64,000 nt of DNA from IMG/VR virus record IMGVR_UViG_3300036770_004547, one strand, 5' to 3'. Below the pieces are notes generated by a model. That model was not told where the DNA came from, did no database searches, and saw only the letters and a program-made list of their open reading frames with translations. How positions within the stretch are numbered: position 1 is the stretch's first letter; the number at the start of each line of letters is the position of its first letter. Source of the stretch: an uncultured virus (IMG/VR IMGVR_UViG_3300036770_004547). Lineage: Duplodnaviria; Heunggongvirae; Uroviricota; Caudoviricetes. Below are positions 19,974 through 53,797 of this stretch, in pieces. The translations under genes and the position numbers were made by a program.

Positions 19974-20291
19974 ATGAACACCTCTTTAAAACACGAAGAA
20001 CAAATTGATTACATCATTGATAAATTTAACTTTGAAAAAGTTAGATGCGCCATGCTTGCACTTGATTGGCAGTGGGCCTGCACTGAAGGTAAAGGATATG
20101 CAGTGCCATCAATTGCAAGACTCAAAGCAATGGCACGTCACTTGCTTCGCTCATCTATTAAAGATACCGAAGTAACATCTGGTGGACTCTATGCCACATA
20201 CTATCCTCCAGAATATGGAGATGATGATTACTTCGTCTTGAAATTTGTAGTTGCTTTTGTTAACTCTGTTGATTACAACGAAGATGACTAA
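19974..20291 (+). CDS. Hypothetical phage protein
   Basis: ORF track. Confidence 0.65.
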   Translation: MNTSLKHEEQIDYIIDKFNFEKVRCAMLALDWQWACTEGKGYAVPSIARLKAMARHLLRSSIKDTEVTSGGLYATYYPPEYGDDDYFVLKFVVAFVNSVDYNEDD

Positions 20292-20625
20292 CCAACACCC
20301 TATCCCGTCTTTGTTTCAAGTGCGAGAGTGGCGAGAAGAAGCAGTTCGCAGACAGTATACTTGTGACGAAGCTGATGAGTATATTGCCGAACAATCTGCG
20401 CAATGGAGCGCAGATAAGGAATTATTAGCTTGTGGAAATTACCTTAAGCAGTGCGCTGCGTGGGAAGAAGAAGATGTAATTGAGTTTTATAATTACCGCC
20501 GCCCCAAGCTGCCGAGCTTGAAGGAGCAGGCGCTGCTGGCGATTGATACCGCTGTCGCGGATGATCGTTTGTCGGCAGATGTTGCCAACGTTGTCCGCCG
20601 CGCACTGGAGCAACTTGATGACTAA
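20284..20625 (+). CDS. Hypothetical protein, paralog of 25520-25900
   Basis: Shared QW(S/G)AD.EL, RRPK..SLKEQAL and RRALEQLDD motifs. Confidence 0.7.
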   Translation: MTNQHPIPSLFQVREWREEAVRRQYTCDEADEYIAEQSAQWSADKELLACGNYLKQCAAWEEEDVIEFYNYRRPKLPSLKEQALLAIDTAVADDRLSADVANVVRRALEQLDD

Positions 20626-23924: not shown

Positions 23925-24140
23925 ATGACTGACTACACAGATGATCAATTGCTTACCATGGCAATGGCAAACATTGGTCAATTCATTGCTGACAACTCAC
24001 CACACTATGTACTAATTGAAGACCCACGCAACGAAGATGATTACGATACGTGGGACTATGGATGCGAACCATTGCCTCATGATCACACTTGGTATCACAC
24101 ATCAATAGATGTGAGTGTAAATCCAAGTAAGCCTGAGTAG
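23925..24140 (+). CDS. Small acidic hypothetical protein
   Basis: ORF track; preceded by a hairpin at 23885-23916. Confidence 0.55.
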   Translation: MTDYTDDQLLTMAMANIGQFIADNSPHYVLIEDPRNEDDYDTWDYGCEPLPHDHTWYHTSIDVSVNPSKPE

Positions 24141-24203
24141 TCCAGCGGAAGAGACAGGGACCTTAAAAGTCCTCCAGCGTGGGTTCGAATCCCTCCTCAG
24201 GCA
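24131..24203 (+). tRNA. tRNA-Leu(UAA), short variable loop, CCA not encoded
   Basis: Acceptor GCCTGAG/CTCAGGC, anticodon arm GGGAC-CTTAAAA-GTCCT, T arm GTGGG-TTCGAAT-CCCTC, discriminator A. Confidence 0.85.
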
Positions 24204-24221
24204 GTTTTTTATTTTACATTT

Positions 24222-24722
24222 ATGAGCCACGCTAAAGCAGCTTTACTACAAGCTTATAAAAAGGGTTATAGAGTTAAAGATAATGTTGTTTATGGCATTA
24301 TTAAAAAACAACCTTTAAAATTAAGTTGTTCTCAATCTGGTTATTTATATTTTAATATAAAACTTGGACCAAAGACACTTAAAGTATTTTTGCATCGTTT
24401 GGTTGCTTATGAAAAATATCAAGATAAGTTATTTGAACCAGGAATATTGGTTCGTCATTTAAATGGAAATAGTAAAGATAATTCGTTTGAAAACATTTGC
24501 ATTGGAACACAAACAGAAAACATGTTAGACAGGAATCCTGAAGAGCGATTAAACCATGCAATCAAAGCATCTAGTTTTATACGTAAATTTACAAATGAAA
24601 AAGTAAGTCAAATTAAACTTGATCATGCAAATGGTTTAGGTTATAAAGCTTTAATGGAAAAATATTGTATTACTTCTAAAGGAACTTTACATTATATTCT
24701 TACGCGTGAATATGTAACTTAA
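24222..24722 (+). CDS. HNH homing endonuclease
   Basis: HRLVAY...VRHLNGNSKDNSFENICIGTQTENM; markedly AT-rich. Confidence 0.85.
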   Translation: MSHAKAALLQAYKKGYRVKDNVVYGIIKKQPLKLSCSQSGYLYFNIKLGPKTLKVFLHRLVAYEKYQDKLFEPGILVRHLNGNSKDNSFENICIGTQTENMLDRNPEERLNHAIKASSFIRKFTNEKVSQIKLDHANGLGYKALMEKYCITSKGTLHYILTREYVT

Positions 24723-25194: not shown

Positions 25195-25527
25195 ATGATT
25201 TCAGACAATCCAAACAAAGCAATCAACCTTAACCTTGTTGATCTGGTATGTGACAACATTCCAGATTGGACATGGACAGTTGTTAAAGAGCAACTAATTG
25301 ATGCAATGGTTGATGCAATGCCAACTCACATTCTTGAAAAACTAACAGGAGATCCAACAGGTGATGAACGTGCACTTGAAATCCTTGATGATTATTACAG
25401 ATCAAATGAATTAAACAAAGATTTAATTGTTGATGCATTCAAAATTCTTGGTGAAGATCAAACAACCTATTTGTTAGATGCTCTTCAACTAGAAAAAATT
25501 CAACAACCAACTAACAACAATGACTAA
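25195..25527 (+). CDS. Hypothetical protein
   Basis: ORF track. Confidence 0.6.
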   Translation: MISDNPNKAINLNLVDLVCDNIPDWTWTVVKEQLIDAMVDAMPTHILEKLTGDPTGDERALEILDDYYRSNELNKDLIVDAFKILGEDQTTYLLDALQLEKIQQPTNNND

Positions 25528-25900
25528 CCAACAACATTTAATTACCCCACCGCCGGAGCTGGTGCTGCAGTGGACATCCGAGTGGATGCGATCTGAAGAT
25601 TCCCGCAACCTGATCGACGGTCGCGACAACTTCATGGCTGCTTGCGCCGCCCAATGGGGCGCCGACCAGGAGCTGGAGGCCATCATTCAATTGGCAGACC
25701 AATCCGCGCTCCCAGAAAAAGATCGGTATTTCGACGGGATGACAGTGGCCAGCCTCCGCGCCGCCCGTCGCCCCAAGCCGCTGAGCTTGAAGGAGCAAGC
25801 GCTAGCAGCGCTTGAAAGATACGAAGCAGAGGAATGGTGTGAAGAAATGACATTTGATAGCAGCATTATCCGCCGCGCCCTGGAGCAACTCGATGACTGA
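25520..25900 (+). CDS. Hypothetical protein, paralog of 20284-20625 (GC-rich cassette)
   Basis: ITPPPELV..AAQWGADQELEA..RRPKPLSLKEQAL..RRALEQLDD. Confidence 0.7.
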   Translation: MTNQQHLITPPPELVLQWTSEWMRSEDSRNLIDGRDNFMAACAAQWGADQELEAIIQLADQSALPEKDRYFDGMTVASLRAARRPKPLSLKEQALAALERYEAEEWCEEMTFDSSIIRRALEQLDD

Positions 25901-35124: not shown

Positions 35125-35247
35125 ATGTTTGAAGTTATTCTTGGCGTTGTTCTTCCTGTTGTCAAAGATCTTCTTTGGACAGCATGCGGAGCTTTGCTGG
35201 CCTATGCAATTAACAAAATTCAATCACACTTCAGTAATGTCTTCTGA
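35125..35247 (+). CDS. 40-aa hydrophobic peptide (not in track)
   Basis: MFEVILGVVLPVVKDLLWTACGALLAYAINKIQSHFSNVF. Confidence 0.5.
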   Translation: MFEVILGVVLPVVKDLLWTACGALLAYAINKIQSHFSNVF

Positions 35248-35452
35248 TACAACCAGGCGCATTGTTGAACTTGCAAAGTCTTACGGCTTTACATTGTTAA
35301 GACAAAAGCGTCATCTTATATTTAAACATTCTTCTGGCAAGATTATTGCTACGTCTCGAACGTCTAGTGATAAACGCGCACTTAAGAATATTGAATCAAC
35401 AATCAAAAAACTTATTTTAAACAATGACTCAAATTACGAAAACAAATCTTAA
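35237..35452 (+). CDS. HicA-like small basic protein
   Basis: LAKSYGFTLLRQKRHLIFKHSSGKII..TSSD.RALKN. Confidence 0.6.
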   Translation: MSSDTTRRIVELAKSYGFTLLRQKRHLIFKHSSGKIIATSRTSSDKRALKNIESTIKKLILNNDSNYENKS

Positions 35453-40728: not shown

Positions 40729-41232
40729 TCAAGCTTGTAATAATTGCAGCATAGTAGAAATATCTTTTAAAACATTCTTTGGTACAAAATAAGCTGGGCG
40801 TCCTCGTGCAGGGTCAGCCCAATATTTCTCTTTCATACCATCTTTTCCATAGCACCAGCCATGGATTAGTGTTTGTTTATTCTCGATTGTTACCAAGACA
40901 AACCGTTTATTTGGATTTTCATTTCGTTGAATAATTAAATCATATTTATGTTTGCTTCTTGTTTTAACATCAATATCACCAGGTAAATCTGAACTGTTTC
41001 TGTTAGCTTCTGTTTCTAAATATAAAAAATCTTTTAAATTTAAATAAGAAGCTACAGCCATTTCTCCTGCTGCTCCAAGTAAATGAATCTCTAATGCTTT
41101 TGATCCAATTGATGCACCACCATTGCGTCCTCTAAGTTTTTTTGTTTCATTAACTTGTTGACGACGTTTTCCTTCTTTAAGTGCTTGCTGACGTTCATCG
41201 TCTGAAAAAACAAACGCAACAGGGGTGTGCAT
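40729..41232 (-). CDS. Putative PD-(D/E)xK nuclease-like protein
   Basis: GAAGEMAVA..SDLPGDIDVKT; AT-rich. Confidence 0.55.
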   Translation of the reverse strand: MHTPVAFVFSDDERQQALKEGKRRQQVNETKKLRGRNGGASIGSKALEIHLLGAAGEMAVASYLNLKDFLYLETEANRNSSDLPGDIDVKTRSKHKYDLIIQRNENPNKRFVLVTIENKQTLIHGWCYGKDGMKEKYWADPARGRPAYFVPKNVLKDISTMLQLLQA

Positions 41233-41265
41233 TTTATAAATAGACAATACCAAGAGTATAGCCAA

Positions 41266-41805
41266 TTAAACGCTGAAATATTGTTTGACTGTGTCGATAG
41301 ACACAGGCGTAAAATCATTGCGTTCTACACATGCATTGAAATATTTTTTATCAGGTTTATCTCCATCCATCACAAGATGGCAATGGGTATGACCATGAAC
41401 ATTCCCTCGGTAGTGACCAGATAAACAAGAAGGGTGCACAGGGATGTGCGTAAAGATCAGACCGCCAAGAAAATCAGAGCCTGGTTTAAAGAAAAATGCA
41501 CCGCGTACATCTTCAAAGTACTGAGAAAAATCTTTAAGCTGACCCTGATCATGGTTGCCACGAATCAGAATCTTTCTTCCGTTCAGACGGGTGAGTACCT
41601 TAAGACTGGGTCGTGGCATAACGACATCACCTAGGTGGTACACAGTGTCATGGTTACTCACGGTGTTATTCCAGTTAATAACTATGGTCTCGTCCATCTC
41701 TTCTACGCAAGAGAATGGACGCAACGGTAAGCCACTAGGGTCAACAAAAGAAAGACTTTTGGCGTGACCAAAGTGGGTATCTGCAATAACAAAGATGTTT
41801 GCCAC
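41266..41805 (-). CDS. Calcineurin-like metallophosphoesterase
   Basis: DTHFGH, HLGDV, GNHD, THIP, HGHTH. Confidence 0.9.
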   Translation of the reverse strand: MANIFVIADTHFGHAKSLSFVDPSGLPLRPFSCVEEMDETIVINWNNTVSNHDTVYHLGDVVMPRPSLKVLTRLNGRKILIRGNHDQGQLKDFSQYFEDVRGAFFFKPGSDFLGGLIFTHIPVHPSCLSGHYRGNVHGHTHCHLVMDGDKPDKKYFNACVERNDFTPVSIDTVKQYFSV

Positions 41806-41979
41806 TTACTTTGCGTGCTTTACATACTTTGTGTAATAGATATATCCTACATAATCACTGCAAAGATGACAGAAAAAATCTCCGCCATTATTTTCTGCAT
41901 GTGTCATGCACCAATACCATTCTTCAAAGCATTGTCCAAACCACCACCAACCAACAAATAGCCTTTCAAAAAAATTCAT
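41806..41979 (-). CDS. Small Trp/Cys-rich protein (not in track)
   Basis: MNFFERLFVGWWWFGQCFEEWYWC... Confidence 0.45.
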   Translation of the reverse strand: MNFFERLFVGWWWFGQCFEEWYWCMTHAENNGGDFFCHLCSDYVGYIYYTKYVKHAK

Positions 41980-41995
41980 TGGTTTTTAATTTAGA

Positions 41996-42102
41996 GTCGT
42001 CTGCATGGGATTCGAACCCACATCGCTAAAACCCACTGACTGAAGTACTGCGTCCAGTACCCAAGTGGGGAGCCGCCTTATCCGTTAGTTCGCAACAGAC
42101 GA
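41996..42102 (-). ncRNA. tRNA-like domain lacking an anticodon loop
   Basis: Acceptor TCGTCTG/CAGACGA, D-like loop with GG, T arm GTGGG-TTCGAAT-CCCAT; anticodon arm replaced by a ~50-nt bulged stem. Confidence 0.75.
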
Positions 42103-42536
42103 GTGACCCATCTGTTTGAGCTTCATCTCGAATTCATTTGTCATTCGCGAATAGCAAATAAACCCTTGGTAAGAGATAGGCTTGATGGGTGTTTGAACGG
42201 GTCTAACCTGCGATCCGTAAGGGGTACCTTTCCCTTCAAAGGCTCTGCAGAGTCCAGGGCGGTTGGCCAACCGTATATAGTCCGTCGAGCTTGCCAAATG
42301 GGTCCCCGGCTCAAAGGTGGACTAATCCCCTACGCAAACCAGCAACGTTCGAAAAAGGTCCGAACCAGAATCGACGCAGTGCCCATTCCTGTTGGCTGCA
42401 CCCTACCGACAGAGCAGTAGGGGTGGTTGAACAGTCCTCCCAAGGCAAGTGCCAAGTTCAGACTGTGGGATAGATGGACCAGGTGTGTCGCCTTCTAGGC
42501 TGTTTGCCTAACGCGCACAGGGACCTGGTTTCTATC
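41996..42536 (-). ncRNA. Putative large (~540 nt) structured ncRNA
   Basis: Extended -10 TGTTATACT at 42552-42544; contiguous helical domains; no credible ORF. Confidence 0.7.
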
Positions 42537-42554
42537 AAAAATTAGTATAACAGA

Positions 42555-42620
42555 AATTCCTGGTTGCTCAAGCCAGGAACGGCAACTTTCGGAATCCCAT
42601 CCAATGGATAGTTGAGCAAT
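42555..42620 (-). ncRNA. Putative ~65-nt pseudoknotted small RNA
   Basis: TATAAT at 42629-42624; 5' TTGCTCAA is complementary to the loop of TTCCTGG-CTTGAGCAA-CCAGGAA. Confidence 0.5.
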
Positions 42621-42630
42621 GTGATTATAA

Positions 42631-42801
42631 CTATTTTTTCTTAGCAGCAGCTTCTTTCTTTTTGGCGATCATCTCTTTAAACTTGTCGCGAGCGGCAGCT
42701 TGCTTGTCGGTAGCACCAGTCTTACTTTTAGCAGGGGCAGCCTTACCTTTCATCTCAGGCTTCATTTTGCCTTTAGCAACAGGAGCTTCTTTCTTTTTCA
42801 T
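42631..42801 (-). CDS. Lys/Ala-rich histone-like peptide (56 aa, not in track)
   Basis: MKKKEAPVAKGKMKPEMKGKAAPAKSK...AAAKKK. Confidence 0.6.
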   Translation of the reverse strand: MKKKEAPVAKGKMKPEMKGKAAPAKSKTGATDKQAAARDKFKEMIAKKKEAAAKKK

Positions 42802-42830
42802 GATGTTTTAGGATCTATTACAATTTTAAC

Positions 42831-43025
42831 TCACTTCTTTTTGCGAGCAGCTTTACTTGCTTTCTTTGCTGCTTCAGTATTGGGAACAAACTGCTTGCCT
42901 TGTTTACTACCCGCTTTCTTCTTGGCATCTGTCTTGGCGCGTTCCTCTTTTGAAAGAGAAGCCCATGCTTTCTCTGGGAGGTAGCGTTTAGTTTGTCCTT
43001 TCTCAATTGCTTTATCGGCTGCCAT
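42831..43025 (-). CDS. Small basic protein
   Basis: RYLPEKAWASLSKEERAKTDAKKK. Confidence 0.65.
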   Translation of the reverse strand: MAADKAIEKGQTKRYLPEKAWASLSKEERAKTDAKKKAGSKQGKQFVPNTEAAKKASKAARKKK

Positions 43026-43309
43026 TACTTTGACTCCTTATACTTTTTAGCTGCTGACTTAGCCTTAGATCTTTTTTCATACTCTTCTCGAGTACTCCAT
43101 TTTTCTTTGCTCCACTTTTCTAAATCTTTTTGTTTTTCACCCTTGCCACCTTTGTATCCGCCGCCGGCTTTTTCGTATTCCTGAGCTAATAGTTGCGAGC
43201 GTCTTGCGCTCCATTGACCCGGCTTGCCTCCCTTAGAACTTGCCATGATGCGATCTTTAATTCGCTCACGGAGTTCTGGCTTTGTGTACTTGCTATCGTC
43301 TTGCGCCAC
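43025..43309 (-). CDS. Small basic protein
   Basis: YTKPELRERIK..GGKPGQWSAR..YEKAGGGY..LEKWSKEKW. Confidence 0.7.
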   Translation of the reverse strand: MAQDDSKYTKPELRERIKDRIMASSKGGKPGQWSARRSQLLAQEYEKAGGGYKGGKGEKQKDLEKWSKEKWSTREEYEKRSKAKSAAKKYKESK

Positions 43310-43771: not shown

Positions 43772-44509
43772 TCAGGACAACTTGTGTAGCACCGGAATGT
43801 TGTACATCCCAATGTTTCCATAACCACTATCTGCAAATGCAAAACAGATGTTTGTGGTGTCGCAGTCCCAGGTGAGAGTGCGAGGGTTCACACCTGAGAA
43901 ACGTAAGCCCTCAGCAAACGGAAGTGCTTTGTAAACACAAAAGCAATTAAAGGTTGACGCTACGGGAAGAAGGTTGGGTAGTTCGGAAACCTTGGGGCCT
44001 CGGTATTCGGAATCATCTGGATTAATACGTGTTGCCCAACTGTCATAAATCCAGTCAGGTACACCAAACCCATGGGGAAGAATGCTATAACCAGATGCAA
44101 TATTTAAATCCGAATACAAAAGAGGACTAATTTGTTCTGGGCTGTACAAAATGTCTGGTTCAACGCATACAACCTTGTCAAATAAAGCAAGATCGTAAAG
44201 CGTGTGCATTTGATCTAGAGTTTTGTTTCTGGCTTCTGCCAGGTAGCGAACCCTTTCCTCTGCTTTGATTGAACCAAAGTATGGCCAGCCCAAATCAGAG
44301 GTCGTCATTTTTACGGCCTCAAAATGGTTCTGGAATTTTTTTTCTACTAAACGAAGGACTTGTTTGGTGTTGTCCTCTGAATCATTCTCAAATACCGATA
44401 AGTAAAACTTAATGTCGGGATTGTGTTTGGCAAGCAAAACTAATTGATCACACCATGTTGGAACGTGCGGTCCTCGGTTGCGAATGATAGTAGAGATTAA
44501 GCAACGCAT
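43772..44509 (-). CDS. Glycosyltransferase (GT-A)
   Basis: FENDSEDNT..LAEARN..EPD..YDSWATR..STFNC; paralog of 46751-47599. Confidence 0.75.
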   Translation of the reverse strand: MRCLISTIIRNRGPHVPTWCDQLVLLAKHNPDIKFYLSVFENDSEDNTKQVLRLVEKKFQNHFEAVKMTTSDLGWPYFGSIKAEERVRYLAEARNKTLDQMHTLYDLALFDKVVCVEPDILYSPEQISPLLYSDLNIASGYSILPHGFGVPDWIYDSWATRINPDDSEYRGPKVSELPNLLPVASTFNCFCVYKALPFAEGLRFSGVNPRTLTWDCDTTNICFAFADSGYGNIGMYNIPVLHKLS

Positions 44510-45669
44510 CGGTAAAGCTCCGCAGCCATAGAAAGGATTTGATGTTCGTTAACAAAATGATTATTGCCAATATAAAAAGAGTTTGTGTGAATCTCTTCGC
44601 TATTAGGTAGGTATGGGTCTTGGTGGTAATCGTGCATAAAAGGCTGTCTCAATAAATTACCAACAAGAAATGGACGTGTTTCAATTCCCATTTCATTGAG
44701 TTTGGCCTTGAGACGTTCTTTGGTTTCTTCTGATTTGCAATGGAATGGAAGAGTCATTGCACTATTTCCCAGGGGGGCAGGCAATGATTTAATCCAAGGG
44801 TGGCCAACCATTGACCATAAAAATTTGTAGTAATTATCAGCACGTTTTTGAATAAAACGATCTAATTTGTTGAGTTGTACCAGGCCTAGGACAGCTCCTA
44901 ACTCTGTGTTTCTGAAGTTGTAGCCTTCGGTTGGAAAGAGGAAAGAGGGGTCAATGTCAGGTGCTAGTTCTTCTTCCAGGCTGCGGTAGCGGGGGAGCAT
45001 TTCCCTAGCCATCCCATGAGAACGCTTGGCACGCATCAAATTGTACAGATCAACATCATCCGTACAGACCATGCCCCCCTCAATTGTGGTCATGTGGTGA
45101 CCGAAGTAAAAAGAGAAGGTTGAGCCGGTGCCTTCATTGCCGACTTTCTTTTTGTCGGGAGTGAGTGCACCATGGGATTCACAGCAGTCTTCCAAGAGAA
45201 TGGCATCGGGCCAGTATTCTTTGACTTGATTTAACCTGTTGGCAAACCCCATAATGTGTGTTGCGTACACAATGTCAGGTTTAAAGCCAACCTCTTTCAA
45301 TCTTTTGAGAGACTCAAAAGTAGGACTGTAGGTTGTGTAATCAATGTCGTAAAAAAAGATAGAGTGACCTTGCTGCCTAAACGTTGAGATATTGGTTGCC
45401 CAATTCACGGCAGGACAAAGGATCTTCAGCTTTTTGTTCTTGCTGAAATACAAGTCCCGTACTGCATCTAGAAGAAGGGTATTGGCAGTTGAACCACTGC
45501 TGACAAACAACGAATATTTCCTACCCTGCCAGGCTGACCATTCCTCCTCAAATTGCTGACACTTAGGACCGTTAGTAAAACGGTCACTAGTAAGAATGAA
45601 TTTGATTAGAGCAAACTTCTCTTCAAAACCAATGGTGTTTTTTTGAAGAGGCCATTTGAATTTCGACAT
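44497..45669 (-). CDS. colD: DegT-family PLP enzyme, GDP-4-keto-6-deoxymannose 3-dehydratase-like
   Basis: SSGSTAN, LEDCCESHGA, SFYFGHHMTTIEGG (His in place of the PLP Lys). Confidence 0.75.
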   Translation of the reverse strand: MSKFKWPLQKNTIGFEEKFALIKFILTSDRFTNGPKCQQFEEEWSAWQGRKYSLFVSSGSTANTLLLDAVRDLYFSKNKKLKILCPAVNWATNISTFRQQGHSIFFYDIDYTTYSPTFESLKRLKEVGFKPDIVYATHIMGFANRLNQVKEYWPDAILLEDCCESHGALTPDKKKVGNEGTGSTFSFYFGHHMTTIEGGMVCTDDVDLYNLMRAKRSHGMAREMLPRYRSLEEELAPDIDPSFLFPTEGYNFRNTELGAVLGLVQLNKLDRFIQKRADNYYKFLWSMVGHPWIKSLPAPLGNSAMTLPFHCKSEETKERLKAKLNEMGIETRPFLVGNLLRQPFMHDYHQDPYLPNSEEIHTNSFYIGNNHFVNEHQILSMAAELYRCVA

Positions 45670-45720
45670 ACTGCACCACGTAAATTCCTGGTTATAGTGT
45701 CAGTATAAAGAATAATTTCC

Positions 45721-46761
45721 ATGAAAAAAGCAATTGTTACTGGAATTACTGGACAAGATGGTGCATATCTTGCCCGTCTGCTTTTTGATAAGGGGTACGA
45801 AATCCTTGGCCTGGTAAGAAATAATGCAAATCCAGGGAACAAAAATAAGTTGAAGTACTTATTCGATGGCTACATCCCTGAGAAAATTAAGTTTGAATAC
45901 TCGGACATGATGGATGCCACATCTATGCATCGGGCTGTGGATAACTTTGCCCCAGATGAGGTGTACAACTTGGCTGCCCAGAGTCATGTTGGTGTCAGCT
46001 TTAAGTCACCAGGGAGCACGGCACATATCAATGCTATTGGTGTCCTCAATATTTTGGAGGCATGTCGCAACGCCGGTCAGATGCCTAAGTTTTATCAGGC
46101 ATCTACATCAGAAATGTTTGGTAAGGTCCAGGAGGTGCCGCAGTGTGAATCAACGTACTTCTATCCGAGGAGTCCGTATGGTGTCGCCAAGTTGTTTGGG
46201 TACTGGCTGACGGTTAATTACAGGGAAAGCTACGGCCTGTTCGGTTGTAACGGCATCCTTTTTAACCACGAATCTCCTGTGAGGGGAGAAGAGTTCGTAA
46301 CTAGGAAGATTACGAAGGGTGTTGCACGTATTACCCACGGGAAGCAGGACTGTATTGAATTAGGGAACTTGGATGCACGCAGGGACTGGGGTCATGCACG
46401 TGACTATGTAGAAGCCATGTATTTAATGCTGCAGCAACCAAAGGCCAAGGATTATGTGATCTCATCTGGAATTCAGACCAGTGTTCGTAAGTTCTGTGAG
46501 ATGGCTTTTGAGGCTGCAGATCTTCCTATCGTTTGGAAAGGACAGGGTCTAGATGAAGTTGGGTATTGCCCCAGGTTGGGAGAAATCGTGATCCGTATTA
46601 ATCCTGAGTATTACCGTCCGGCAGAAGTTGATACCCTGTTAGGTGACTCAAGTGCTGCACAAATTGAACTTAATTGGAAACCTCAGACTACGTTGAACCA
46701 ACTCGTAGAGGAGATGGTTGAACATGACTTGCGTCAGGAGTGGGATACCTCTACTTACTGA
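45721..46761 (+). CDS. gmd: GDP-mannose 4,6-dehydratase
   Basis: TGITGQDGAYLA, YNLAAQSHV, QASTSEMFG, SPYGVAK, FNHESP, RDWGHA. Confidence 0.95.
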   Translation: MKKAIVTGITGQDGAYLARLLFDKGYEILGLVRNNANPGNKNKLKYLFDGYIPEKIKFEYSDMMDATSMHRAVDNFAPDEVYNLAAQSHVGVSFKSPGSTAHINAIGVLNILEACRNAGQMPKFYQASTSEMFGKVQEVPQCESTYFYPRSPYGVAKLFGYWLTVNYRESYGLFGCNGILFNHESPVRGEEFVTRKITKGVARITHGKQDCIELGNLDARRDWGHARDYVEAMYLMLQQPKAKDYVISSGIQTSVRKFCEMAFEAADLPIVWKGQGLDEVGYCPRLGEIVIRINPEYYRPAEVDTLLGDSSAAQIELNWKPQTTLNQLVEEMVEHDLRQEWDTSTY

Positions 46762-47599
46762 TGAAGGTTGCCATCTGTGCTTCTTGAAGTCGTTTGCGGT
46801 GTAACTCGATGACACTGGGGTGCGGAACAACTTCCTTTTTATGGATGATTTCTGCGTGAAGCGTGGGGTCTGCAATGACCAGATAATCGTTATCTCGGAT
46901 CCCACGGCAGAATTCCCAGTGCTCCACACCATCAATAACCGACCATTTCACATCGGCCAATGCATCGTCTTTGATCATGGCAATTGATCCAAATGCACTA
47001 TTGCACGCAACTGGTTCTTTATTGTCCCAGGCTTGGCGATCCTCTGCGTTAAGAAATGGGTTTGCTGCAAACGTCATTGCTTGTTGACCGGTGGAATCAA
47101 CAAGAGACCAGCTATCAAAATAAGAAGAGCGGTCCGTATCCTCAATGTAATCACGTACGTTTTGCACAGTATTGGGTGAGACCATTCCCCAATCTTCATT
47201 GGCATCAAGGCGATCAATCATTCCAGTGATAAGGGATGGTTCCCAGTGCACATCACTGTCTGCAACCAGGAGGTAATCAAAAAAGTAGTAATTATTAATG
47301 AAGTCAAGTGCGATGTTTCGGTACCGTGCTTGGTACTTAACACGTTCAATGGATGCAACACTTCCCCACTTGGGAGCACCAATGCGTTCTGAGATGACGA
47401 AACCAAGGCGTTCTGAGAGCCAGGACTGGAGGAGTTGTGGGGTTTTGTCTTGGGAATCATTCTCGAAAAAAGCATAGACAGGACTAATATTTTTCTCGAA
47501 CAAGGCTTCTTCCATGGCTTCGAATTGAGCTAGGGAGTACTTAAGATATGGCTCACTGTCGCGCCACAGGGAGAGGATGGCCAGAGTTTTGGTACGCAT
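46751..47599 (-). CDS. Glycosyltransferase (GT-A)
   Basis: FENDSQDKT..ARYRN..DSD..YFDSW..SAFG..EHW. Confidence 0.75.
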   Translation of the reverse strand: MRTKTLAILSLWRDSEPYLKYSLAQFEAMEEALFEKNISPVYAFFENDSQDKTPQLLQSWLSERLGFVISERIGAPKWGSVASIERVKYQARYRNIALDFINNYYFFDYLLVADSDVHWEPSLITGMIDRLDANEDWGMVSPNTVQNVRDYIEDTDRSSYFDSWSLVDSTGQQAMTFAANPFLNAEDRQAWDNKEPVACNSAFGSIAMIKDDALADVKWSVIDGVEHWEFCRGIRDNDYLVIADPTLHAEIIHKKEVVPHPSVIELHRKRLQEAQMATFISK

Positions 47600-52534: not shown

Positions 52535-53797
52535 ATGACTAAAAAGAAATTGCTTTGGGTTGGCGATTTGGCTGCAAAAACCGGATTCGGAAGAGTCGGT
52601 GGTGCGCTGCTACCTAAGCTTCGGGATGAATACGAAATTGTTGTGCTCGCATGTAACTGGCACGGAGATCCAGTAGAGGAGCAGGAATTGTTCAGGATGT
52701 ACCCCGCATCTAACCGTTTTCAGCAAGCACCGTTTGGGGAAGAACGCATCAGGGAAATTGTGGAGCGGGAAGAGCCAGATGTTGTTTGTACGTTGAATGA
52801 TCCCTGGATCGCGGCAGATCAGTACAGGCGTATTCAAGATTTGCACCAGCAGAAGAAGTTTAGGTTCTGCGGGTACCTCACGATGGACTCGTATAACTGG
52901 GTTAGTGGTATCGATCCTTGTATCAATGACTGGGATGCGTTGATCACATTTACGGAATTTGGTGCATACGAATTTATTAAAGCGGGAATTCGCAAGCCAA
53001 TTACTGTTATTCCCCATGGGTTGGATTCTGAGAAGTTTTATCCCATGGATAAGAAGGAGGCACGGAAGAAACTGGGATTGGCTGATGATGTGTTCATTGT
53101 GCTGAATGGGAACAGGAATCAATTCAGGAAACGGATTGACGTAACTATTTCTGCGTTTGCCAAATTTGCTGTTGGTCGGCCAGACGCACGCCTGTACCTG
53201 CATATGGGCTTGAAGGACCAGGGCTGGGATGTAATGCCTGTGTTTGCTAGGGAAATGCAGAAAAACGGGCTTGATCCCAACGGACGCATCATTATGTCCG
53301 CCAACACGCCTAACCCTCCCAACGTGTCGGTGGAGATGCTGAATTGGATCTATAACGCTGCTGATGTAGGTGTCAACACAACCAAGGGGGGCGGCTGGGA
53401 ACTGGTTAACTTTGAGCACGCTGCCTGCAGGGTGGCTCAGGTAGTACCAGACCATACGAGCACCAAAGAGATTTTTGAGGGCTACGGAAAGCTGATTCGG
53501 TGCGACCACGTGGATGTGGACTGCCACTTTTCCAGGGAGATGCCCTGCCCCTCTGACACCCACCTGGCAGAGCTTCTGACGGAGCTGTACGAGAACCCTC
53601 AGGAGCGGCTGGAGACGGCTGAGAAGTGCTACCAGAGGGTCACGGATCCATGCTTCCAGTGGGACGCGGTTGCAGCCGAATTCCACAAGGTGTTCCAGGA
53701 GGTGCTGGATGATACGTATGAACTGCCGCAAGAGGTAGTCTCACCGGTCGCACTTGAGAAGAAAAGTAAGAGGAAAAAGAGGAAAAAAGCTATTTAA
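52535..53797 (+). CDS. Glycosyltransferase family 4 (GT-B)
   Basis: TGFGRV..VIPHG..NRNQFRKRID..YNAADVGVN..GGGWELVNFE. Confidence 0.85.
   Translation: MTKKKLLWVGDLAAKTGFGRVGGALLPKLRDEYEIVVLACNWHGDPVEEQELFRMYPASNRFQQAPFGEERIREIVEREEPDVVCTLNDPWIAADQYRRIQDLHQQKKFRFCGYLTMDSYNWVSGIDPCINDWDALITFTEFGAYEFIKAGIRKPITVIPHGLDSEKFYPMDKKEARKKLGLADDVFIVLNGNRNQFRKRIDVTISAFAKFAVGRPDARLYLHMGLKDQGWDVMPVFAREMQKNGLDPNGRIIMSANTPNPPNVSVEMLNWIYNAADVGVNTTKGGGWELVNFEHAACRVAQVVPDHTSTKEIFEGYGKLIRCDHVDVDCHFSREMPCPSDTHLAELLTELYENPQERLETAEKCYQRVTDPCFQWDAVAAEFHKVFQEVLDDTYELPQEVVSPVALEKKSKRKKRKKAI

Follow-up and report, generated by a model that had tools for sequence, protein, structure and literature searches.

The abiF motif (Rfam family RF03085), the RNA antitoxin of type III-like toxin-antitoxin systems whose toxin is AbiF (Abi_2), was reportedly described by Weinberg et al. 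in 2017, in an article whose main text does not mention abiF. AbiF is a HEPN ribonuclease (RNase) that is bound by its non-coding RNA (ncRNA) as an antitoxin, and the inhibitory nucleotides lie in a single-stranded bulge of this RNA (PMC12737573); in a second report, the abiF motif is the portion of RCd22 required to neutralise AbiF (PMC12373285). Two other defences are countered by RNA, in both cases with experimental tests: pseudo-ToxI counters ToxN (PMC3475682), and RNA anti-CRISPRs hold Cas proteins inactive (PMC10651486). Here we describe an abiF-type hairpin followed by a transfer RNA (tRNA)-like unit in the DNA of an uncultured cyanobacterial virus of the Caudoviricetes (IMG/VR record IMGVR_UViG_3300036770_004547). 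The window, that is, the whole stretch of 64,000 nucleotides (nt) that was analysed, contains them at positions 41,996 to 42,536, on the minus strand, where a first-pass annotation made from the sequence alone had proposed one promoter-led RNA of about 540 nt, possibly of a new class, with a tRNA-like 3' end.

We find that the interval does not form a single architecture but consists of modules that can occur apart from one another. From 5' to 3' on the minus strand, the conserved region that precedes it and the modules are as follows.

42541..42633, minus strand: conserved non-coding region, 3' of the stop codon of a Lys-rich open reading frame (ORF) of 56 amino acids (aa).
42469..42536, minus strand: module A, hairpin GAUAGA...ACCAGGU[inner helices]ACCUGGU...UCUAUC.
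42431..42466, minus strand: module B, hairpin ACAGUC...GACUGU.
42326..42427, minus strand: module C1, 8-bp hairpin with the invariant loop UGCUCUGUCG, and an outer stem GCAGCCA/UGG.UUGC around a variable insert.
42279..42323, minus strand: module C2, AGUCC/GGACU enclosing GAGC/GCUC, with the near-invariant core GACCCAUUUGGCAAGC.
42195..42278, minus strand: module D, palindromes at 42273-42260 and 42252-42243 and a TTTGAA/TTCAAA closing helix.
42106..42190, minus strand: module E, hairpin of the abiF motif whose terminal loop carries a further, 54-nt hairpin.
41997..42102, minus strand: module T, tRNA-like unit with acceptor CGUCUGU/GCAGACG, T arm GUGGG-UUCGAAU-CCCAU and discriminator A41997.

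Two sets of loci (numbered with the prefix L) were compared with the window. Related loci were reached via the phosphoesterase gene downstream (112 pattern matches, 106 confirmed, the best 80 kept), and module content was compared across 79 of them by blastn and nhmmer, and by direct reading. A viral hairpin set was built independently from an exact 23-nt abiF core, which matched 89 viral stretches; 80 of these were fetched, with 69 distinct downstream contexts. Folding z-scores were calculated from 200 shuffles for each module and from 100 for the whole region. Covariation was compared with 500 shuffles and with a slid control, in which the 3' partners were shifted by 1-3 columns.

Module E is an expanded-loop variant of the abiF motif. 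The cmscan alignment and the minimum-free-energy fold give it P1 ACCCAUC/GAUGGGU, a bulged A, P2 AGC/GCU and a 3' internal loop CAAACA. At the gathering score the Rfam scan returned only a tRNA-Leu; a permissive scan returned abiF in addition, with a match that spans 42189-42106 end to end (E 0.02, or 5.9e-5 per record). At the same position and between the same flanks (UUCAAACA... and ...UCACUCGUCUGU), L009 has the canonical 37-nt abiF hairpin, at 55.7 bits. The cut-off was passed at this position in 5 of the 20 relatives scanned, the others being L053 and L057 (49.9 bits each), L046 (45.5) and L035 (41.9). When 20 short and expanded forms were aligned (alignment A6), 8 of 13 pairs showed compensatory changes and the covariation score was 0.462, compared to 0.179 for shuffled alignments (0/500 reach it); here as for the other modules, the structures were predicted on the same alignments that were scored and the sequences are related, which makes such figures somewhat favourable. 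The folding z-score of the module was -2.91 (1/200).

The expanded form is found in many relatives, with inserted hairpins that vary in sequence and always end in a spacer-less palindromic tip. These tips resemble 6-bp restriction sites (GGCGCC, GACGTC, GATATC, TCGCGA), as seen in L011-L061, in L086-L100 and at 42140-42156 of the window; small insertions of palindromic sequence, or sites of dimerisation by kissing loops, are possible explanations.

In viral contigs the abiF hairpin is associated with tRNAs. Under a strict test, in which an acceptor and a T arm had to start just after the hairpin, such a unit was found about 4 nt 3' of it in 34 of 80 loci; of 1600 positions drawn at random from these loci, 26 passed. 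ARAGORN placed a tRNA start within 40 nt of the hairpin in 26 of the 80. Besides tRNA-like units, the partners include bona fide tRNA-Leu, Arg, Tyr, Val and Ala. The first-pass annotation was right to place the interval among phage structured RNAs associated with tRNAs: in the array of Synechococcus phage S-CREM1, the annotated abiF lies 4 nt before tRNA-Gly, manA abuts tRNA-Asn and wcaG is 48 nt before tRNA-Met; in S-SZBM1, the hairpin abuts tRNA-Ala. The host of both isolates is Synechococcus sp. CB0101. At a few loci the canonical hairpin stands elsewhere with no tRNA between: 130-360 nt 5' of integrase genes in L107 and L109, and directly 5' of an SLH-OprB cyanobacterial-type porin-like ORF in L151 and L166.

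The metagenome contigs that contain a 22-nt abiF core, which were mostly gut- and rumen-type records, differ in both neighbours. An Abi_2 gene was found in 10 of the 30 ORFs scanned downstream of the core, and a tRNA-shaped unit followed in only 1 of 74 instances. In the phages, Abi_2 (PF07751) matched none of the 59 ORFs of the window, none of the 22 ORFs scanned downstream of viral hairpins, and none of five phage genomes that carry the hairpin, under conditions where control genomes gave matches.

Module T mimics a tRNA but lacks the anticodon loop. The tRNA-like 3' end seen at first pass is present, with the T loop UUCGAAU. The D region (CGAACUAACGGAUAAGGCGG) is followed by a bulged central arm of 47 nt with a 4-nt loop, so that a single arm lies between D region and T arm, in place of an anticodon stem and 7-nt loop; in most relatives this arm is a short stem with the loop CGCU. 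CCA is not encoded. In an alignment of 12 sequences (A1), 10 of 15 pairs showed compensatory changes and 98.3% of the cells were paired, compared to 31.7-46.4% after sliding. The 7-bp acceptor and the 5-bp T stem, which closes a UUCRANY loop, were paired in 100% of these sequences, with 9 of their 12 pairs compensatory, and the folding z-score was -1.92 (9/200). The unit was called neither by ARAGORN, which found only the tRNA-Leu at 24131-24203 in the window, nor by the Rfam tRNA and tmRNA (transfer-messenger RNA) models, at gathering score or E<=10. A tmRNA or permuted tmRNA was considered and rejected: the ARAGORN tmRNA search was negative, no more than 106 nt span the two strands of the acceptor, and position 3 pairs with 70 as G-C or U-A.

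Upstream of the chain, two promoter-like boxes are conserved. The extended -10 named at first pass, TGTTATACT, is present at 42552-42544, with TTGAGC 16 nt upstream. This TGnTAnAnT box is retained in the window, L004, L006 and L009, and TGCTAYAAT-like boxes occur 7-10 nt 5' of the first structured module in L011, L028, L029 and L073, a spacing consistent with a transcription start just before GAUAGA, to judge from the position of the box. A terminator-like hairpin, TTCCTGG/CCAGGAA at 42579-42557, is followed by a U-rich run and holds the -35 hexamer in its loop. The second box is a perfect TATAAT at 42629-42624, directly after the stop of the Lys-rich ORF. Column identity over 42541-42633 averages 86% among the window, L004, L006 and L009, and the 80-nt leader after the TATAAT (42541-42620) is near-invariant in the same four; the fold alone was not significant (z -1.21). 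An inverted repeat, TTGCTCAA/TTGAGCAA (42619-42612 and 42571-42564), can pair across the loop of the terminator-like hairpin. TATAAT and leader may be the true promoter and a 5' module.

The reading that we prefer, with a probability of about 0.5, is that of a phage ncRNA-tRNA operon, laid out like a cassette of tRNA genes, in which the tRNA mimic directs processing and frees an orphan abiF antitoxin as a decoy. One of the two boxes would drive a precursor composed of A, B, C1, C2 and the poorly supported D, then the abiF-type hairpin, then the anticodon-less unit. T would be cut at its 5' end, 4 nt past the abiF hairpin, by RNase P, and at its 3' end by the enzymes that process tRNA 3' termini. 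The hairpins upstream would thereby be released as small, stable RNAs and parted from the downstream messenger RNA. The freed abiF hairpin would then bind a host AbiF-type HEPN RNase and hold it inactive during infection. Release by RNase P is the natural inference from the fixed spacing of 3-4 nt between hairpin and tRNA. By analogy with pseudo-ToxI and the RNA anti-CRISPRs, the presence in a lytic phage of an antitoxin RNA without its toxin suggests that it may act as a decoy for a host AbiF.

Several observations weigh against this reading. The window copy of the hairpin scores 27.9 bits against RF03085, under the cut-off of 37, owing to the penalty for the 54-nt loop insertion. The phage hairpins constitute a subclass of their own: in the single-stranded 3' internal loop, each of the 20 A6 rows has CAAAC (CAAAAC in one), whereas the metagenome instances read CAAAU in 65 of 74, including all 12 in Abi_2 loci, and a U-run follows 59 of these 65. 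Since the inhibitory nucleotides of the AbiF RNA are located in such a bulge, binding or inhibition may differ. Literature searches found no AbiF in picocyanobacteria, and one Synechococcus defence inventory names AbiE, not AbiF. Just 3 nt separate the TGCTACAAC box of L005-L008 from the 5' end of the tRNA-like unit, too few for a complete unit to be started from there, so that the box is a candidate promoter. Finally, module D is unsupported as a structure.

Among the alternatives, an unlikely one is that the tRNA-like unit is itself the functional product, the hairpins being leader elements for stability, processing order or protection from host RNases, with no role towards AbiF. Where defence nucleases attack host tRNAs, the product could distract them or stand in for their targets; it could also be a carrier that is charged but takes no part in translation. 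T is indeed the module retained when all others are lost (L005-L008). Its D region is near-invariant (CGARCUAAYNGGAUAAGRCGG) and nearly virus-specific: the pattern was found in 19 viral loci, compared to 2 matches in the genome collection, a Poribacteria metagenome-assembled genome and a Desulfosporosinus genome, both without tRNA calls. T directly follows a real tRNA-Pro(UGG) in 6 of the 9 phage loci scanned. In addition, ARAGORN run on the loci reached via the phosphoesterase found an odd tRNA of 68-72 nt 5' of this gene in 31 of the 60 scanned; across relatives, the anticodon of the short unit in this slot varies freely, reading Ile, Met, Val, Gln or unassignable. One of them, in L027 (~2700-2790), has an intron-like insertion of about 45 nt in the anticodon loop. 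However, the 22-nt identity of the abiF core with bacterial AbiF loci is hard to square with a generic leader role, and a unit without an anticodon loop offers no target for anticodon nucleases.

A broader version of the preferred reading would see the locus as a counter-defence island, compact and centred on RNA, in which cyanophages deliver orphan RNA antitoxins in the 5' leaders of tRNA and tRNA-mimic genes, the abiF hairpin released by RNase P counters AbiF/HEPN abortive-infection toxins, A and C2 are further decoys, T is a new class of phage RNA, and the phosphoesterase heals the cyclic-phosphate RNA ends left by HEPN nucleases; so much at once we hold to be improbable. Two ORFs follow T.

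41979-41806, minus strand: 57-aa ORF, downstream of module T on the same strand.
41805-41266, minus strand: 179-aa metallophosphoesterase (Pfam Metallophos_2, PHROG 547).

Searches of PDB and NCBIfam with the phosphoesterase gave an uncharacterised Aquifex protein, weak PdeM/YfcE matches and nothing else. The conserved order of hairpin, tRNA-like unit and metallophosphoesterase invites the speculation of a shared task, perhaps the repair of HEPN-cut RNA ends. Next to it, 3' of the phosphoesterase, a 178-aa ORF (40729-41265, minus strand, PHROG 18407) contains a GDIDVK motif, noted by eye, which suggests a PD-(D/E)xK nuclease fold and not a HEPN motif.

The upstream modules were analysed in the same way as E and T. 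The stretch is non-coding, as the first-pass annotation had held: its longest ORFs are 105, 70, 60 and 57 aa long, with no Pfam match at E<=1. The helices that it listed were also found (ACCAGGT/ACCTGGT, ACCCATC/GATGGGT, TCGTCTG/CAGACGA, TAGTCC/GGACTA and TTTGAACGG/CCCTTCAAA), as were the palindromes CGGTTGGCCAACCG (42260-42273), matched in 0/100 shuffles, and CTCTGCAGAG (42243-42252), matched in 2/100. The expectation that homologs conserve base pairs was borne out for A, C1, C2, E and T.

Module A had the lowest folding z-score, -5.15 (0/200); 23 distinct homologs were found, and in an alignment of 16 sequences (A4), 7 of 12 predicted pairs showed compensatory changes on both sides. Its outer GATAGA/TCTATC pairing is possible in the window, L004 and L009; most module-A relatives do not have it, and there RNAalifold pairs GAU.G.G with CCAUC. 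In relatives, this family is often directly 5' of a tRNA-like unit. Module C1 showed compensatory changes at 8 of 16 pairs among 17 sequences (A2), with a covariation score of 0.378 compared to 0.163 for shuffled alignments (0/500 reach it) and at most 0.119 for slid ones; its folding z-score was -1.57 (15/200), and it matched no Rfam family. For T, E and C1 alike, 0/500 shuffles reached the covariation score, and sliding lowered the paired cells from 97-99% to 27-58%. In module C2, 4 of 13 pairs were compensatory among 15 sequences (A3), and the fold of the single sequence was not significant (z -0.93, 37/200). A c-di-GMP-II-GCG match on the C2 of L046, with 15.6 bits where the cut-off is 47.9 (E 8.7), was taken as chance. 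To judge from their common AAGCC/AGCC...GCU layout, A and C2 may be diverged versions of one hairpin type.

For module B, covariation support is thin (2 of 11 pairs compensatory among 8 sequences; z -2.82, 2/200). Module D gave no thermodynamic indication of structure: the palindromes and the TTTGAA/TTCAAA multiloop, which had been read as RNA structure at first pass, fold no better than shuffled sequence (z +0.46, 130 of 200 shuffles as stable), and the sole homolog, in L004, is 96% identical.

The paired positions include G-U pairs on the minus strand, for instance U-G in 16 of the 17 C1 rows, which would read A-C on the opposite strand; this argues for an RNA made from the minus strand. Contigs from RNA libraries of three studies match 42190-42498 at 90-99% identity, although such contigs are no proof of transcription, and none was found on 41700-42189 (E, T and the ORFs) or on 42499-42900, gaps which prove nothing either. 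One such contig, from a relative, joins 42428 to 42473, that is, A to C1 without B (the short side has 26 letters); in another, the 12 nt between C1 and C2 are replaced by 52 other letters.

These conserved elements could also belong to a cis-acting leader that controls the 57-aa ORF and the metallophosphoesterase, by attenuation, by a riboswitch-like response to a ligand or by regulated stability. The modules lie directly upstream on the same strand with no terminator after T, and the invariant loops of C1 and C2 between covarying stems are aptamer-like. Furthermore, in 28 of the 80 hairpin-picked viral loci a phosphoesterase homolog, with protein identity down to 40%, is found 111-1015 nt 3' of the abiF hairpin on the same strand. 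But abiF hairpin and tRNA-like units also stand in arrays without a phosphoesterase (S-CREM1, S-SZBM1 and 52 of the 80 loci), the downstream gene is constant while module content varies, and a tRNA-shaped unit between leader and ORF is expected to be cut out. We therefore consider the leader distinctly unlikely.

The comparison of related loci bears on whether the modules form one molecule.

L004: almost the full set; additional sequence is inserted between A and B and within C2.
L005-L008: nothing but T and the conserved region upstream.
L009: A, B, the canonical 37-nt abiF hairpin and T, without C1, C2 and D.
L046, L053, L057, L035, L058: C1, C2, the canonical abiF hairpin and a different tRNA-like unit of 68-70 nt.
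Other loci: C1 alone, or C2 alone (L082).

Since the parts occur in differing combinations among relatives, we conclude that they form a chain of separable modules, and the proposal of a single RNA of about 540 nt and of a new class is not supported. Such an ornate RNA, with one architecture, a tRNA-like 3' domain and perhaps oligomerisation via its palindromes, would account for the head-to-tail succession of modules on one strand with no terminator between them, for the nearly whole set kept in L004, and for the palindromic tips that recur in inserted hairpins. These spacer-less tips of the abiF-loop inserts are the only hint, read from the letters, toward the oligomerisation imagined at first pass. 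Apart from the separation or reordering of modules in relatives, the 551 nt as a whole fold only marginally better than shuffled sequence (z -1.95, 4/100 shuffles as stable), D is unsupported, and no long-range helix between modules is conserved: the CCCCUAC/GUAGGGG option of the window is absent from L046-type relatives. The first-pass annotation could match the region to none of GOLLD, ROOL and manA, and these models indeed gave no match at E<=10 in 41500-43100 or in L046 2400-3000; one module, E, nevertheless belongs to a known family, abiF, that had escaped the comparison by eye. A single large RNA is thus very unlikely. That the locus is a DNA-level feature, a site of recombination, a PeSL-like promoter-stem-loop cassette or a set of small palindromic insertions with incidental RNA folds, would fit the mosaic gain and loss among close phages, the spacer-less perfect palindromes and the stem-loop overlapping the promoter box, but it is hardly credible in view of the strand-specific G-U pairs, the compensatory changes in five modules and the conservation of single-stranded loop sequences.

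The window has the genes of a phage, among them a large terminase, a family A DNA polymerase, a single-stranded DNA-binding protein, a primase-helicase, a tail fibre and an endolysin. The RNA region (571 nt) is 100% identical to one 19.7-kb IMG/VR record, and an exact 25-nt search found no other viral contig besides this near-identical record of the window itself. Judged by the neighbouring phosphoesterase, the nearest isolate is Synechococcus phage S-CBS4 (49% identity), in which an endonuclease VII gene occupies the position and such an RNA is lacking. A DNA search of isolate phages with the region gave a single match of 62 nt, in S-EIVl and outside the RNA. The related loci carry tRNA-Leu(UAA) and Glutamine-II riboswitches, the latter typical of picocyanobacteria and their phages; in relatives, the tRNA-Leu(UAA) adjoins the riboswitch, on the opposite strand, downstream of the phosphoesterase.

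Other features of the window were noted in passing. Its own tRNA-Leu(UAA), at 24131-24203 on the plus strand, is followed 18 nt on by an HNH endonuclease ORF (stretch 24131-24722). The 56-aa ORF upstream of the promoter region (42631-42801, minus strand) consists mostly of Lys, Ala and Glu (MKKKEAPVAKGK...AAAKKK); it is kept in L006 and L009 and has no family match. A 107-aa ORF at 35129-35452 (plus strand, PHROG 2053) has a HicA-like match in PADLOC (E 4.4e-8), and the phage may thus carry a toxin-like domain here. Sugar-modification genes lie at 43772-47599 and 52535-53797; they include a GDP-mannose 4,6-dehydratase, a DegT-type aminotransferase, two CAP59-like mannosyltransferase domains and one GT4 glycosyltransferase. 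Two paralogous ORFs of PHROG 32006 are found 5 kb apart, at 20251-20625 and 25520-25900 (plus strand).

How, then, does the locus compare with known systems? It may share with the PeSL promoter-stem-loop cassettes of T4-type phages a stem-loop fused to a sigma-70-like promoter box at a mosaic module border, although the window phage is not T4-like. Unlike ToxI-like type III antitoxin arrays, the window does not repeat a unit in tandem: Tandem Repeats Finder (minimum score 30) found no tandem direct repeats in 41900-42700. tRNA mimics are known from the tRNA-like domain of tmRNA, the tRNA-like domains of bacterial Y-RNAs and mascRNA-type 3' ends. Like them, T combines an acceptor stem with a T arm whose loop is canonical, and does not serve in decoding; it differs from tmRNA in lacking a tag ORF and a G3-U70 pair, and the ARAGORN tmRNA and Rfam searches were negative. 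The conserved D region, GARCUAAYNGGAUAAGRCGG, is similar to the D arms of class II tRNAs, a likeness noted by eye only.

The tRNA-linked RNAs of cyanomyoviruses (manA, wcaG and abiF of S-CREM1) are likewise structured ncRNAs directly 5' of tRNA genes, on the same strand (PMC9964418). The window modules, however, match neither manA nor wcaG in the Rfam scan, an anticodon-less tRNA mimic stands at the end, and the phage is related to S-CBS4 and not to T4-like myoviruses. Whatever their function, at least three covariation-supported motifs (A, C1 and C2) and an anticodon-less tRNA-like family are found here, all without a match in Rfam 15. It is possible that the 10,006 unnamed candidates of PMC10690425 already include them. 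The original claim is thereby corrected to a mosaic of small modules in place of a new giant RNA.

As to abiF itself, module E and its relatives share with RF03085 P1, the bulged A, P2 AGC/GCU and the CAAA internal loop, and over a core of 22-23 nt the short phage forms are identical to hairpins 5' of Abi_2 genes. The phage copies differ in having no AbiF gene nearby or elsewhere in the phage genomes tested, in being followed 3-4 nt on by a tRNA or tRNA-like unit and not by a U-run terminator, and in reading CAAAC where the others read CAAAU; the window copy is, in addition, 54 nt longer and below the family cut-off. Like pseudo-ToxI of phage PhiTE (PMC3475682) and the RNA anti-CRISPRs of solitary repeats (PMC10651486), it would be the RNA partner of a defence system without the protein. 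Those two are backed by experiment; the decoy proposed here is a prediction from sequence, and its AbiF target in the host clade is hypothetical. If the reading of a processed decoy is true, a bacterial antitoxin hairpin would have a second role in phages, parted from the gene of its toxin and joined to signals for tRNA processing, which would explain the clustering of structured RNAs with phage tRNAs; and AbiF, the proposed ancestor of Cas13, would join the short list of defences countered by phage RNA mimics.

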